Origin: Mobula hypostoma
Lineage: Eukaryota
DNA: 60,000 nucleotides
Assembly (NCBI RefSeq): GCF_963921235.1
Contig: NC_086097.1
Location: forward strand, 172,610,001-172,670,000
Reading direction: 5' to 3'
Position numbers and translations under genes: made by a program. Shown in pieces: positions 29,201 through 51,235 of the stretch (positions are counted from its first letter, which is position 1; each line of letters begins with the position of its first letter). The notes beneath the pieces were generated by a model. It was not told the DNA's origin. It was given only the letters and a program-made list of their open reading frames with translations, and did no database searches.

Positions 29201-29284
29201 CTGCATGTTATCGAGACTTGTTTGGGGTATTAGAAAACTAACACAGATCAGAAATATTCTTCCAGAAAAATTAGTGTTTATTGC

Positions 29285-29704
29285 TGTTGGAGTGATTTTT
29301 GGGTTTAGCACATCTAGCAAATAACTTCAGCCACCAAACTTCAAATCTGAATATAGATTGTAGATTTAATTTGAAATGCAGCTCTGAACTATAGATTCCT
29401 AAAAGCCTTGAAGCACAGACCAGACAATGCTGTTCAAAATTTACTTAGATGTCTGTGGTGTGGGTGCAAATTGGGAAGCATGAAGTTTGTGTATAGTTTC
29501 AAAGAAAGCATTGTTGAGGCATTGTAAATATAGATTGTCCTTTGATATTTAGCACATAAAATACTGAGCCCTCCATCAGGCCAGCCTGACCTTTTCATCA
29601 AATGCATCTCAATATGATGCCTGTTGTATCTTGTTTTGTCAGATAAAGAGACTGCTTCATACCTACCTGTACTTTTCTCCAGTGACTTCATTCATGCAGC
29701 AACA
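29285..29704 (+). repeat. ERV 5' LTR
   Basis: Begins TGTTG, ends CAACA; aligns with 34156-34533. Confidence 0.92.
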
Positions 29705-29706
29705 TT

Positions 29707-29727
29707 TGCAGTCAGAAGTGGCAGATT
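29707..29727 (+). promoter_or_regulatory. Primer-binding site, tRNA-Leu-like (degenerate)
   Basis: tgcaGTCAGAAGTGGcagatt versus the expected tRNA-Leu complement TGGTGTCAGAAGTGGGATT; starts 2 nt after the LTR. Confidence 0.7.
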
Positions 29728-29849
29728 GCTGAGTACGTTTTCTGCTGTTTTAAGTATATACTAGTACCCATTATTTATATTTTGTTTAGTGTGGAAATTA
29801 GTGTGGAGATATTTCAGGGAGAGGGTTTACAAAATAAATCTGTCAGGAT

Positions 29850-30700
29850 GACACCTATTGAGGTCAGGCAACATCAGGTAAAGAACTCTGATGGTCCGAG
29901 CCAGCCTTGACCTTGATTACTACTATTCATAAGCCCTTCAGCTCAGGGGAGAAACAGAGTATTTTGTCAGAGCTGCCCTCACTTAAAGTCACATATGTGA
30001 ATTCAGAATTCTGGCACAAGCTCAAAGAAATGATTGAAATTCACCAGATGCACCCCGAAGATATATATGTGTTGATAAAAGCAAGGGGCCCAAGGAATAT
30101 GTGGGACATTTTGACCAGTGGGTACAGGATAGTAAATGGGAAACTACCGGGAACAGCAGCAATGAAGAAAGATATTTCTCTTTTAAAGGGGAAATGAGGC
30201 AGCGACTGGGGGGAGGTGAGAGTAACTGGGGAACAATGATGGCAGTGATTCAAAGAGCTGATGAGACAGCCATGGATTATGAAGAACGTAAATATCGAGC
30301 ATATGAGGAGTATTCAGGGTTGGATAATCCAGGAAGGGATGACACAGTCTTCCTGAAAATGATGAAGGAAGGACTGACTTCAGCCCACCAGTTGCTATAG
30401 ATTTAGGGATAGCAGTGGGATCGAGCTACTCTGCAATAGTTCCATGGGCCAGTGGGATAGACCAAAGGAAGTACAAGAGAAATTGTAAAGTGGCTATAGT
30501 GCATGTAGCTGCTGAGACATCACAGAGGGCTTGCTTTGTGTGCTGGCAGGACTGCTGGAATAGACATTGGAGGATTAAGGAGTTGTATGCTGCAGCTGTG
30601 GCCTATCGGGACACGGATAGAGGCAGTGTTCCAAAAAGAGTGAAAAAAAGCAGTTGAAAGTCATGGCAGCACACAATCTTTCACCCCATCATCACCCAGT
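29850..30700 (+). pseudogene. gag: ERV gag remnant
   Basis: MHR-like QRADETAMDYEER; degenerate knuckle CFVC at ~30532; CX2CX4HX4C (CCSCGLSGHG*RQC) at 30588-30629. Confidence 0.75.
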
Positions 30701-30789
30701 CTGGCCAATCTGACTGTCAATCAGATCATAGAGCTGGTGAAGTCAGCTTTTAGGCCAGAAAACGATGTGGCAACAGCCCCACTTCTAGC

Positions 30790-31480
30790 GCTGGTGACCC
30801 ACGGATGTACACAACAGCATTATTAGGGGGCCAGCAATGTGGTATATTATAGGCCGGTGATGTTGTGGGGATGGAACTGGACTCTCTGACGGTGGTGTCT
30901 GAAAAGAGGATGCTGTCCAAGTTGCATGCCATCTTGGACAATGTCTCCCATCCACTACATAATGTACTGGTTGGGTACAGGAGTACATTCAGCCAGAGAC
31001 CCATTCCACCGAGATGCAGCACAGAGCGTCATAGGAAGTCATTCCTGCCTGTGGCCATCAAACTTTACAACTCCTCCCTTGGAGGGTCAGACACCCTGAG
31101 CCAATAGGCTGTCCTGGACTTATTTCCTGGCATAATTTACATATTACTATTTAACTATTTATGGTTTTATTACTATTTAGTTATTTATGGTGCAATTGTA
31201 ATGAAAACCAATTTCCCCCGGGATCAATAAAGTATGACTATGACTATTGACAGAGGGGCATTGTTATCAATAACTGACCTACCCTTGCCAAAAACAGGAC
31301 AGGCTATTTATATTACAGGTGTAGGAGGAGAAACAATGAAAGCAGAAAGAAGTGAGTCGTAGATATTTGAAATTGGTGGAATGCAGTTTTCAGTGTAGTT
31401 GCAGTCTGTCCAAGTAATGAGGGAAGCATGGGCCATTATAGGTTCAGGAGAGGGAGAAATAATATGGTCAAGCCAGAGGC
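30790..31480 (+). pseudogene. pro: ERV protease remnant, split by a LINE insertion
   Basis: GDPRMYTTALLGGQQCGIL | IDRGALLSITDLPLPKTGQAIYITGVGG: a DTGA-like active site plus flap glycines. Confidence 0.72.
30851..31247 (+). mobile_element. Short 3' fragment of a distinct Rex1-type LINE inserted in the ERV protease
   Basis: Open peptide GMELDSL...ILDNVSHPLH...TERHRKSFLPVAIKLYN; AATAAA followed by a (TATGAC)n tail. Confidence 0.85.
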
Positions 31481-31589
31481 AGTGAACACGTATAACAAAC
31501 AGAGAACACAACATAGCTAGTGTAGCCACACTGACAGCTGTTCACAAAACAGTAATGATGGTTAAGGACACTGGAATGAATCATGTGGG

Positions 31590-33250
31590 GGAGGGGAGGC
31601 ACATGAGTGCCAAACAGAAATAAAACAGGAAGAAGCTATTAGTGTGAAGGAAGGGGCAGAAGAGGAAATTTTTATTGATGGGTCTCAGCAGTACATAAAT
31701 GGGAAGCCACGGACTGGCTGGGTTGTGATGAAGGAAACAGATGAAGAATTAGGTTCAGGAGCTCTACCTGGGGGTGGCTCAGCTCAGGTGGTGGAGCTGG
31801 TGGCCCTGGTAGAGGCACTGCATTACAGTAAAGGCAGATGAGCAAATATATATATAGACAGCCGGTATGCCTTCGGGTGGTGCATGATTATCTGATGAAT
31901 ATGATGTACCCAAATGACATGGGCACAGTGTGGATTTGTAACTTCAACAGGGACGGGTATTCAGCACAGGCGCCTAATACAACAATTGCTGGAAGCAGTG
32001 AGTCTGCCAGCAGAGGTGACAGTAATTAAAGTAAAAGCTCACCAGAAAGGGGAGAGTGTGGAGCAGAAAGGAGATGAGTGGACAGACATCACTGTGAAGA
32101 AGGCAGCAGAGAAACAAGAGGCAATTGAAAGTACGTACAGGAAGAAACAATGGAAAGCCAGTTTAATAAAATTATATGAAGAGGTGGTGGCAGAAGGGAA
32201 GGAGAAAGGGAGCAAAGGAGAGACCAGGTAGGAGTTGGACCCAGGGGGAGAAAGGAGTCGTGGTGGCCCCACCATGTATTAGGCAGATACTGCTGAAGTT
32301 ATATCATGGGTTGATGCATCAGGGAAGGCAGAGCGTGATCACAATCATCCAGCAGGATTGGTGGTGGCCGGGGATGGGCAGAGATGTTGAGAAATTCTGC
32401 CACCATTGTATCATGTGTGCTCAGCATAACCCTGGTAAGGGCGTAAAGCTACAGCTGGCAAACCAGCCACGGCTGAGGGGACCCTGGGAAAACATTCAGA
32501 TAGATTTCACGGGGCCCCTACCCAAAAGCAGGGGGAAAAGCTACTGTCTAGTAACTATGGATCACTTCACCCAGCGGGTAGTGGCTTCCCAACGAGGGAC
32601 TGCACCGCCAGCACCACTGTACGGATTCTATTTCAGGAAATTCTCCAGGTGGACTCGGATTAGGAACACATTTCACGGGGAAAGTGATAAAGGAAATGTG
32701 CTGACTGTTAGGGATTCGACAATGTTTCCACGTACCTTACCTCTCTCAGAGGTCAGGAATGGTAGAATGGATGAACCGAACAATCAAGAATACCTTAACC
32801 CAAGCTGTAGCTGAGACGGGAGAGATATGGGTTGATGTATTACTTGGAATCCTGACGAGATTGCAAACAACCCCAAACTGCACTCTGGATCTCAGCCCCA
32901 ACCAATTATTGAAGGGGCGAGCAACGTGACTCCCTTATGAGGTAATTATGAGTTGCGGTGAACCTGGGATTTACAGGGATAGAATATGACACAGTGTGTG
33001 AGAGACCTTTGTAACCAACATAAAGTGCTGAAGGACCGAGCAAAACAACAGCAGCACATTGCAGATCAGAGAGAGCCAGAGGGAAAGGAGATAGTCCTCC
33101 CACAGCCTGGTGACCAGGTCATGGTGAGGGTGATGCCTGAAAGGGCAGGGTATGAGGGGACCATGGATGGTACTTTTAACAAGTGATACTTGTGTCCATA
33201 TGCAGACTCGGTGAGGTAGCCAGTGGAAACACTGGAATAGGGCTAAATTG
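31590..33250 (+). pseudogene. pol: ERV pol remnant: RNase H plus integrase
   Basis: GEAHEC, FIDGS, SAQVVELVAL, IYIDSRYAF and IKVKAHQ; integrase HHCC (H..MH...WWWPGM...CIMCAQHN) and GPWENIQIDFTGPLP. Confidence 0.9.
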
Positions 33251-34143
33251 TATGACTCACCTTCTTGTTGCCCCCACAGAGAGAGCAGAGGATCAAGTGT
33301 TCCCAGTAACCGTGTTATTACAGAAAATCTAAGAGAGGAACACCAACCAGCCACACCAGACCTGAGCTCGGTTGATAGAAAAACACCCACAGCAAATGTG
33401 AAGGCAGAGGATACTGAAAGCATGATAGAAACCTATGCTAAAGTGTGATGGTAATGGTACTCTGTAATGAAGGCTGGTTGCTGAAAGTGGGTGATCAGTT
33501 GAATAGCATAGAGTAGAAAAGATATTGGGAAAAATAGATGGGGATGGATTTAAGTAACAGCAGGTTTCACAACTTCAATGGCATGGCAGACTGAGAAAGA
33601 GTGCCCACAGCATCAGAAGGCAGTCACCCCCAGCCTGAATGGGGAGTGAATACAAATGAGCTGGGCCTTTTCAGCAGTCAGGCCAGTGATTGACTGGACA
33701 GTTTGGAAGGGGGCGCCACAGGGGAGAGGTCCTTGCAGTCATTCAAGTAGAGACCACCCCAACCCCTTCCTGTACATCGATGAGAGGGCCTGTGAGCCTG
33801 ACACACTTACTTTGCTGGTGCCGCTGGAAAGAGAGAGTTTCAGCCATCAGAGATTGAAGGGATGAAGACAAGGAATGTGATTAAGCTGCAATTGGCCAGC
33901 AGGGAAAGAGCAACAGACACACAAACGAAGCTGCATTTCTAAAGACTGTTGTTCATATTTCTGGACAATCTCTCTGATTAGCATTTTGTAGGTAGCTGTT
34001 AGGGATGAAAGGGTAGATGTACATAATGTAATGGTTGTGGCGGGGGGTAATTTCGAGGCAGGGCATTTCTGCTGCCCAGTTTGAGTTGATCCTCCTTAAC
34101 GTTGGCCTTTCCTTGTACAAATTAATTTTTGTCCGGGAGGGCT

Positions 34144-34154
34144 GAGAAGAGGGA
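34144..34154 (+). promoter_or_regulatory. Polypurine tract
   Basis: GAGAAGAGGGA lies 1 nt before the 3' LTR. Confidence 0.75.
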
Positions 34155-34155
34155 C

Positions 34156-34533
34156 TATTAGAGCGATTTTTTGGGTTTAGCACATCTCTGAATATAGATT
34201 ATAGATTCAATTTAAAATGCAATAGGTTCCTAAAAGCCTTGAAGCACAGTCCAGACAATACTGATTAAAATTCACTTAGATGTCTGTAGAGTGGGTGTGA
34301 ATCAGGTGTGAAGTTTGTGTATAGTTTCAAAGAAAGCATTGTGGATGCATTGCAAATATAGAATTGTCCTTTGATGTTTAGCACATAAGATATCAAGCCT
34401 CACATTGGGCCAGCCAGACCATTCCACCAAAAGCATCTCAATATGATGCCTGCTGTGTATTGTTTTGTCAAATAAGGAGGCTAATTTATAGCTACCAGTA
34501 CTTTTCTCTGGTGACTTCATTCGTGCAACAGCA
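34156..34533 (+). repeat. ERV 3' LTR
   Basis: Diverged copy of 29285-29704 with small deletions; followed by the TSD ATTGC. Confidence 0.92.
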
Positions 34534-34929
34534 ATTGCAATAAATTTTGGGAGATGCAGAGTAAGTGGAATGTTGTTAACATCTTACTGATGAAATGTCC
34601 ATCAGTTAAATGTAAGTGGCAGTGAGGAATCCAATGCTTCATGACAGGTTTCTCCTCAGAAGCTGCAGCTGCCCTTGTCACTCATTCTGTTACCTAGCAT
34701 GCCTAAAGGCCTCAGAATCAATTACCTGTGGGCTCCTGGTAATGAAGATATCAGTCTTGACCCTAGTGCTTCAGACTCAATGTTCATGGGCAAGGCTGTC
34801 CAGTGGGACCATGCTTGACTTTGGCCTTGCTCTTGTCACTAGGGTCTTCAAGTCTAAGCTCATACTTATTGTTGTAAAAGTACTTATGGTATCCAGGGTA
34901 TAAATGCTTTTTACAACAGCAGCACAATA

Positions 34930-35270: not shown

Positions 35271-35789
35271 TGACTTTAGGGCACAGTCTTTGACAGATGG
35301 TTATCAAGCTAGCAGAGTCTGCAGGAATATGGCACAGTCTAGAGCTAGAGGAGAGGTTTGACATGCAGGCAACAGAGAAACTGTCCTTCTATCTTCAAGA
35401 TGTAGGGCATCCTTGTACACATTGAGCTTGCTACATTCATTGCATTCATTATACTTTACCTGGAAGAATATTTCTTGGCCAAATTAGCTTGCAAATACCC
35501 CAAATATGCCCCATAATATTTATTGTATTGTGTTGGCTTATTATTGTCATACGTAGATATGGTAAAAAGCTTTTGTTTAGTATGTCAATCAGACAGATCT
35601 TACCATCCATATTTTTGTACATTGAGGAAGTAAGCAGAAAACAGAATGCTGAATGCAGTTGCAATGAAAATGCAGTTGCAAAGAAAATGCAGTGTAATGT
35701 TATAGTAACATGTCTGACAATATTATTATTGGGGATGATAAAAAGAAAAACTACAGATGCTTGAAATCTGAAACAAAAGAAGGAAAAAT

Positions 35790-49959: not shown

Positions 49960-51235
49960 TTCCTGTACCAGACAGTGATGCAGCTGGTCAGGACACTCTT
50001 AATAATATCGACCGGGGGGGGGGGCGGGGGGAGGTGGGGAGTCTAATTCATTTCAATCTCCTTAGGAAGTGGAGATGCTGCTGTGCTTCCTTGACTAAAG
50101 CGATGTTGTTGATGGATTAGGTGAGGTCATCGATTATGTACACTCCAAAAAACATGGTGTTCCTAACTCTCTCCATGCTGTGTATGTGCAGTGAGGAGCT
50201 GTCAGCTTGCATCTTCCTAAAGTCCACAATCACCTCGTTAGTCTCGTCCATGCTGAGAGCCAAGTTGCACCGTTCCACCAGCCACTCTGCCTCCTCTCTG
50301 TATGCTGTCTCGTTTTCATTCTTCTTGCCATCCTAACCGAGATGGCATGCTTCATTTTTTCTTACATCTCAGAATCAGAATCAGGTTTCAGCTGTTCCTG
50401 AATCACTGAGTGTTTGCCTTTAGGCTTCTGTACCACCTTCCTGACAGTCACAATGTGAAGAGGGCATGCCCTAGGTGATGGGGGTCCTGACTAATGTATG
50501 CCACCTTTCTGAGGCACCACTCCTTAGATAATATGGAGGCTAGTACCAAAGATTGAGCTAACTCTTCTTACAACTTTCTGTAGCTTCTTTCAATCCTGTG
50601 CAGTACTAGACGGTGATGCAGCCTGTCAGAATGCTGTCCATAGTACATCCATAGAAGTTTTCAAGTGTTTTAGGTGACAAACCAAATCTCCTCAAACACC
50701 TAATGAAATATAGCCACTGTCTTGCCTTTTTATAACTGCGTCAATATGTTGGGACCAGGTTTGATCCTCAGAGATCTTGACACCCAGGAACTTGAAATCT
50801 CTCCACTTCTGACCCCTCTACGAGGATTGGTTTGTGTTTCCTCATCGTTCTCTTTCTGAGATCCACAATCAGCTCTTTGGTCTTTCTGACGTTGAGTGTA
50901 AGGTTGCTGCTGCAACACCACTCAACTAGCTGGTATATCTCACTCCTGTACGCCCTCTCGTCTCCAACTCAGATTCTGCCAACAACGGTAGCATCATCAG
51001 CAAATGTATAGATGCTGTTTGAGCTGTGCCTAGCCACACGGTCATGGGTATAAAGAAAGCGGAGCAGTGAGCTAAGCACATACCTCTGTAGTATGTCAGT
51101 GTTGATCGTCAGTGAAGAGGAGATATTATTACCACAATCCACACAGATTGTGGTCTTGTGGTTAGGAAGTCGAGGATCCAATTGCAGAGGGAGGTACAGA
51201 GGCCCAAGTTCTGTAGTTTATTGATCAGGACTGTA
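49960..51235 (-). mobile_element. Two adjacent Rex1/Babar fragments
   Basis: YTFADDATVVGRI; the tail 'cagaatcagaatcagg' at ~50370 marks the second copy. Confidence 0.85.

Follow-up and report, generated by a model that had tools for sequence, protein, structure and literature searches.

A decayed provirus in Mobula hypostoma with class I-like proteins and a 5-bp target-site duplication: a candidate member of an aquatic retroviral lineage

Results

A 60,000-nucleotide stretch of Mobula hypostoma contig NC_086097.1 (assembly GCF_963921235.1, positions 172,610,001 to 172,670,000 of the forward strand; hereafter the window) carries at 29285-34533 a 5.2-kb endogenous retrovirus (ERV), a provirus that pairs what appear to be class I-type proteins with a target-site duplication (TSD) of class III length. 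A first-pass annotation made from the sequence alone had described paired long terminal repeats (LTRs), an ATTGC TSD, a Leu-like 11-nt core of a primer-binding site (PBS), a polypurine tract (PPT), two zinc-knuckle remnants, protease, RNase H and integrase, and we located all of these; features absent from that description are a deletion of reverse transcriptase (RT) and tether, a piece of a long interspersed nuclear element (LINE) in protease, and the lack of a detectable env. Features lie on the forward strand unless otherwise stated.

The 5′ LTR (29285-29704, 420 bp, TG...CA) and the 3′ LTR (34156-34533, 378 bp with internal deletions, TA...CA) are 85.6% identical, with 322 of 376 aligned columns agreeing and differences that comprise 40 transitions and 14 transversions (Kimura two-parameter distance 0.163). 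They are bracketed by ATTGC at 29280-29284 and again, directly 3′ of the 3′ LTR, at 34534-34538; this TSD is 5 bp long, as the sixth base is mismatched and a 6-base duplication fails. A solo LTR of a related family on the reverse strand (1131-1671) is 74.5% identical to the 5′ LTR of the provirus (alignment score 124.5; 100 shuffles reached at most -2) and has its own 5-bp TSD, GACTT, at 1672-1676 and 1126-1130, so that a 5-bp stagger is present at both of the two sites examined. Both this solo LTR and the proviral 3′ LTR start with TA in place of the expected TG. The provirus is also flanked by a 53-nt inverted repeat (29221-29273 and 35452-35504, 75% complementary), possibly an older DNA element that hosts it, or chance.

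Six nucleotides past the 5′ LTR, within a degenerate PBS (29705-29727) whose canonical TGG start is missing, begins the 11-nt tRNA-Leu-like core (29711-29721). Chance alone predicts 0.04 copies of this 11-mer per window; there are two, the second lying at 50803 inside a stretch repeated elsewhere in the window. The 11-mer is contained in a Drosophila pre-tRNA-Leu primer (PMC11495624), a comparison made with a fly tRNA, and was not found in 392,035 characters of the 3.56-million-byte S2 Data file of Xu 2018 (PMC6001957). A tRNA gene search of the 60-kb window found none, and an Rfam search at the leader gave chance matches only. We rejected a self-priming PBS, as no stretch of 7 nt or more of the PBS is complementary to the element's own LTR. 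Grouping ERVs by PBS has proved inconsistent (Jern 2005, PMC1224870), and PBS type is a weak taxonomic marker. The PPT occupies 34135-34155, with purines at 18 of 21 positions.

The gag remnant (29892-30815, start approximate) runs through several frames and includes a capsid region with a stretch resembling the major homology region (30263-30280) and both knuckle remnants. Knuckle 1 (30532-30570) is degenerate; knuckle 2 (30588-30629) keeps the full CX2CX4HX4C spacing with one stop. The capsid piece matches a M. hypostoma gene model, P0256, at 87% identity over 43% of the 120-residue query, a match that by itself points most probably to a myliobatiform ray as host, and because P0256 has two complete CCHC knuckles, the two-knuckle reading of the provirus is confirmed. 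The predicted structure of P0256 lies nearest to Gag_p30 clusters (template-modelling (TM) score 0.58; model predicted local distance difference test (pLDDT) 0.59), and a feature search with the capsid piece of the window returned generic Retrotrans_gag clusters only (0.93, few shared features). The window has gag and protease in separate frames at 30770-30830, whereas P0256 holds both in one frame with no stop.

Protease is split by a 396-bp LINE end. Its first part (30796-30849) is delimited by P0256, whose residues to 210 end at 30849, and by residues 3-13 of P0222, which align to 30817-30849. After the interruption at 30849/31246 it continues at 31246-31536 with a decayed active-site motif, three stops and 35% identity to residues 12-121 of P0221, a protein of a shark cluster, which align to 31240-31536. 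The LINE-like insertion (30850-31245) is 5′-truncated and carries AATAAA and a short tandem tail; contig depth over it is about 10^6, compared with about 10 on the flanks. We take this piece to be of the Rex1/Babar type. Contig depth over 31112-31412 is about 13-fold lower in run X9 than in run X1, and one X9 contig matches only from 31250, a pattern consistent with a LINE insertion younger than the lineage split sampled by run X9.

Downstream of protease, the entire RT and tether are missing. At the deletion junction (31537-31580) the alignment to the nearest full Pol, P0221, leaves its residues from about 122 to 574, some 450 codons, without counterpart. Because the junction is spanned without difference by a contig of run X1 (possibly the source sample) and also by a contig of organism C (run X9), the deletion is not an assembly error. 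RNase H and linker follow at 31581-32190, with residues 575-782 of P0221 aligning to 31581-32207, four stops in the matching frame and motifs at 31671, 31779, 31851, 32028 and 32070; all four RNase H motifs and the integrase motif IDFTGPLP of the first-pass annotation lie where it had placed them. The best match of this RNase H in the PDB is that of xenotropic murine leukaemia virus-related virus/murine leukaemia virus (XMRV/MLV; E 3.5e-22), and none of its 11 PDB matches at E<=1 is a Ty3 or foamy virus chain.

Integrase (32191-33262) is spread over several frames and retains HHCC (32305-32418), IDFTGPLP (32500-32523), VDSD (32649), GMVE (32756) and a decayed GPY/F-like motif (33155-33172), so that a GPY/F-type motif follows the integrase core, as in class I. 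It matches Pfam Integrase_H2C2 at E 1e-14, and its best PDB match is foamy virus integrase (E 6e-15). MLVIN_C is present in the relative P0166 and falls below the cut-off in P0233. A fold search with the modelled integrase (pLDDT 78) placed foamy viruses first and walleye dermal sarcoma virus (WDSV) eighth, at TM of about 0.44 with a large root-mean-square deviation, and was set aside as too poor for classification. No dUTPase was found in the window frames, in P0221 or in P0219, both of which relatives end before the end of pol. Relative to P0221, pol has at least four frame changes and nine stops in matching frames; judged from its reading frames, the provirus encodes nothing functional and would be inert today.

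The 0.9 kb in which env would lie (33263-34134) shows no env or host-gene signature. Pfam searches of 33260-34155 gave no match at E<=0.05 in three forward frames and, for 10 further pieces including reverse frames, best values of E 0.011 and 0.039, below the cut-off and taken as chance; a PDB search in three frames gave one match, at E 0.53, and neither a CX6CC nor a furin motif was found in the 0.9 kb past integrase. A captured host gene was considered and rejected, since the Pfam and PDB searches gave no signature of one. The remainder of the 60-kb window consists mostly of decayed LINEs and short interspersed repeats; from the patterns of their open reading frames, the LINEs are presumably CR1-like and Rex1-like.

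Queried with the integrase piece, a set of 1.84 billion representatives yielded 10,890 matches at E<=0.001, of which the best 150 were listed and ten looked up; the six clusters named among these ten are from Leuciscus/Pimephales, Anguilla (three), Synaphobranchus and Gopherus. Many of the relatives found with integrase carry the label NYNRIN-like. When an eel protein served as query, a further search gave 53 long Pols, of which P0168 matched the window best. Its cluster holds an intact Pol of Mustelus asterias (XP_078069418.1), with RT, tether and RNase H present, and this nearest Pol group (the P0168/P0219/P0221 cluster) is 35% identical to the window in protease, 39% in RNase H and 50-51% in integrase. 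P0168 itself matches MLV RT-RNase H at E 1e-108, foamy virus at 4e-51 and Ty3 at 1e-44. The integrase piece had no match in a word-based search of proteins, and scans of viral contigs for relatives of P0006 and P0219 were negative; a metagenome scan returned two weak loci at 39%, which were not used. A Heterodontus francisci protein labelled zinc finger protein 850-like (P0199) contains an ERV remnant with protease, the end of RNase H and the start of integrase; it too is without RT, and its place is in another branch of fish ERVs.

In every tree that includes it, the window element falls beside the shark Pol: with P0168 in the RNase H tree (support 95/88; of 50 chosen proteins, the 30 that matched were used together with the window, 31 rows in all), with P0168/P0001/P0006 in the tree of integrase (99/96; 51 rows), and with P0168/P0001 when RNase H and integrase are combined (98/96; 37 rows). 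The position of the shark Pol in the taxon set used was read from two RT trees, built from 79 of 95 RT-bearing proteins and from 42 of 43 chosen ones (P0241 dropped), and from an RT-tether-RNase H tree (29 rows, 635 columns). All three split the retroviral rows from the Gypsy rows at 100/100. Shark and eel rows join class I-like rows at 99/94 (79 rows) and 99/97 (42 rows) with RT, and at 100/100 with RT, tether and RNase H, where union with class III-like rows is rejected (approximately unbiased (AU) test, p=0.004). In the 42-row tree the shark and eel rows stand outside a core of 15 class I-like rows (99/94), and there, as in the RT-tether-RNase H tree, their RT comes out as sister to the gamma/epsilon core and not inside it.

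The insertion is common to the window genome and two other organisms, as seen at the 3′ junction, where contigs of organisms B and C bridge the end of the 3′ LTR and the flank, reaching 39 and 33 letters into the LTR. In the flank, divergence from the window is about 2% for organism B and 7-8% for organism C; with 16% between the LTRs against the 7-8% of the flank, the insertion should be roughly double the age of the split from organism C. An absolute age of about 370 My, on the rate of 2.2e-10 assumed by Han 2015 (PMC4422223), was rejected as implausible, and the paper itself flags the rate as uncertain. All three DNA runs show a multi-copy family: individual positions in gag are covered by as many as 79 distinct contigs from one run, and the depth summed over gag and integrase reaches the thousands compared with about 10 on the flanks, a depth that gives no copy number. 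Depth over the protease end and RNase H is lower than over gag and integrase; we rejected this as a sign of copies without that stretch, as the copies lie near the 85% cut-off. Run X14, which we guess to be RNA, yielded mostly diverged pieces and no information on expression.

Discussion

The proteins point to class I and the TSD has the length expected of class III: ERV1 elements are described with 4-bp TSDs, knuckles and GPY/F, and ERV3 and ERV4 with 5-bp TSDs and neither of the other two (Chong 2014, PMC4299795). A 5-bp TSD, two knuckles and a foamy-like integrase motif together fit no textbook ERV class, in agreement with the first-pass annotation, which had pointed to such a mix. We posit, with a probability of roughly 60%, that this is a fixed, inert provirus of a canonical retrovirus whose aquatic lineage, represented in sharks, rays, eels, cyprinids and turtles, splits off immediately outside the core class I (gamma/epsilon-like) ERVs. 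Membership of Retroviridae is indicated by the RNase H of the window, by the tether and acquired RNase H behind it in P0221 and P0219 (the tether being deleted in the window copy), and by an RT that groups with retroviruses, read by proxy from the shark Pol. Within the family, class I is suggested by Gag knuckles, of which class I has one or two and the window one fully spaced and one degenerate (two complete in P0256), and by the GPY/F-like motif.

Several points weigh against this placement. The TSD is 5 bp, at the provirus and at the related solo LTR, where class I has 4 bp, although TSD length varies within ERV classes (Chong 2014, PMC4299795), and the N-terminal part of integrase has its closest counterpart, among viral structures both solved and predicted, in foamy virus. 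With the RT of the window deleted, the placement is by proxy through the shark Pol, in trees composed without snakehead, foamy, loki or class II sequences or named exogenous references, and with class labels deduced from the host and from Pfam domains (Gag_p30 for lizard rows, dUTPase for a Bombina row). RT alone does not reject a union with class III (AU p=0.10). The test that does reject it ran under LG+G4, with no mixture model, on an alignment that includes RNase H, a domain that retrovirus groups have swapped (PMC7947760). Rows resembling an_ro_ERV5 (P0011/13/19), which belongs to the same group in the Xu 2018 list, fell on the class III side in the integrase/combined tree analysis. Finally, Xu 2018 (PMC6001957), with full reference sampling, lists the group at the foot of clade Huo, a position known to us from the order of labels and not from the branching, so that the group's position conflicts between that study and our trees. 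The same element and group could accordingly be the earliest branch of clade Huo, related to snakehead retrovirus (SnRV) and class III, with the class I-like traits being ancestral. The S2 Fig order runs from SnRV through Rh_ty_ERV4, Ch_my_ERV12, Ma_te_ERV13, Ch_pi_ERV20 and the An_ eel ERVs to clade Tu, the foamy clade, and unclassified SnRV- and Ovex1-related ERVs can have knuckles and GPY/F (Chong 2014, PMC4299795); the 5-bp TSD and the RT-only test are compatible with this position. We nevertheless regard it as doubtful, since three trees favour the class I side, the 635-column test speaks against it, and a later review calls some RT positions unstable.

The remaining alternatives are far less probable. 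A lokiretrovirus or an element of the Odin type, so far without precedent in cartilaginous fish, is suggested by the many NYNRIN-like labels among integrase relatives, as loki integrase is close to CGIN1 (PMC7947760); we consider it very improbable, because loki RNase H groups with foamy viruses (PMC7947760) and that of the window matches MLV and no foamy chain, the proxy RT nests beside class I rows, and the NYNRIN-like label is also carried by class I-like rows. The first-pass annotation had noted that a 5-bp TSD with a Leu primer is typical of ERV-L-like elements. ERV-L elements use Leu primers, and both the Leu-like PBS and the 5-bp TSD would suit ERV-L/ERV3 or ERV4. That reading did not hold up and has little left to recommend it: ERV-L has no knuckle (Jern 2005, PMC1224870), ERV3 and ERV4 lack both knuckles and GPY/F (Chong 2014, PMC4299795) and the provirus has both, no dUTPase was seen in it or in its two relatives, and the proxy Pol does not group with the dUTPase-bearing row P0216. 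A Ty3/Gypsy retrotransposon is the least credible of all. Gypsy elements can have Leu primers and two knuckles, and the Retrotrans_gag matches of the capsid piece point the same way; the element is not Gypsy because its RNase H is of the MLV/XMRV type and the RT trees split off the Gypsy rows, and the proxy Pol moreover has a tether and a second RNase H. On this the first-pass annotation, which had called a vertebrate retrovirus, was right.

Going beyond the branching just outside core class I, we tentatively propose that the shark-ray-eel-carp-turtle group may lie outside clade Huo and form an unnamed sister lineage, or grade, of the gamma- and epsilon-like retroviruses as a whole. It would have kept an ancestral combination of an RT and RNase H of MLV type, two knuckles, an integrase whose N-part is foamy-like, and a 5-bp stagger. 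In rays it would have multiplied to many copies, possibly as RT-less passengers of a helper. By standard retroviral biology, a tRNA-Leu-primed genome would have been reverse-transcribed with a PPT-primed plus strand, and a DDE integrase cutting with a 5-bp stagger would have left the 5-bp duplication. RT, tether and most or all of env may have been lost before integration, in which case a helper would have mobilized a defective copy, or only afterwards; the LINE would have entered protease later, and both LTRs drifted to 16% divergence.

The provirus itself is a dead, partly deleted repeat, and its value is as a pointer to a group of disputed position. If that group is the sister of class I, it would reveal traits of the ancestor of gamma- and epsilonretroviruses; as an unnamed sister lineage, it would offer the most suitable outgroup for tracing how class I arose and would put a date on the change from 5-bp to 4-bp integration. 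The small real addition made here is a 5-bp TSD at two sites, two knuckles and a Leu-like PBS, together with a ray family that joins the pattern of host switching among sharks, turtles and fish.

Comparison with known systems

Among described elements, those of Xu 2018 (PMC6001957) come closest. Compared by eye, the protease start in the first 400 characters of the rh_ty_ERV4 record (whale shark) agrees with P0256 at 23 of 26 residues and at 11 of 15 with the window, a stretch of gag translated by hand from just ahead of the header of the turtle ch_my_ERV12 agrees with the window capsid at about 25 of 50, and the RT and tether of rh_ty_ERV4 and of the turtle ch_my_ERV12, ma_te_ERV13 and ch_pi_ERV20 closely resemble those of Mustelus P0219. 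These ERVs are RT-bearing family consensus sequences, some of about 10 kb, whereas the window copy has 5.2 kb, no RT and no detected env; as far as seen in this comparison by eye, with no computed identity, the provirus does not appear to be of the same family at high identity. The Mustelus asterias cluster (XP_078069418.1), sister of the window in three trees and with RT and tether intact, is an automatic gene model and not a described ERV. Eel P0166 (Anguilla NYNRIN-like models) belongs to the same grade in the RT trees, at 46% identity to the window in integrase and 37% in RNase H; it matches the text of an_ja_ERV1 by eye (PMC6001957) and forms a separate branch, closer to core class I in the 42-row RT tree and in the RT-tether-RNase H tree.

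With class I/ERV1 (clades Jin and Mu) the provirus and its relatives share an MLV-type RNase H and tether, two knuckles, a GPY/F-like motif, a Gag_p30-like capsid model and the lack of a dUTPase; they differ in the 5-bp TSD, in a position outside the core clade and in an integrase N-part nearer to foamy virus. Six chondrichthyan genomes hold thousands of clade I and III RT loci (PMC11089739), and the elephant shark has both SnRV-like and epsilon-like ERVs (Han 2015, PMC4422223). SnRV and CmiERV lineage I are likewise aquatic, lie between class I and III and are represented in a cartilaginous fish (Han 2015, PMC4422223), and SnRV has one knuckle where epsilonretroviruses have two (Jern 2005, PMC1224870). 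In the literature searched, the group sampled in 2018 was not found named or described by structure. The first-pass annotation had suspected a poorly sampled or undescribed chondrichthyan lineage; poorly sampled it is, with no name and a position in conflict, and it is neither undescribed nor restricted to chondrichthyans, given its relatives in eels, cyprinids and a tortoise and, by eye, the published whale-shark and turtle ERVs. On these sequence comparisons the M. hypostoma provirus reads as a further member of an already sampled, unnamed retroviral group that extends beyond cartilaginous fish.

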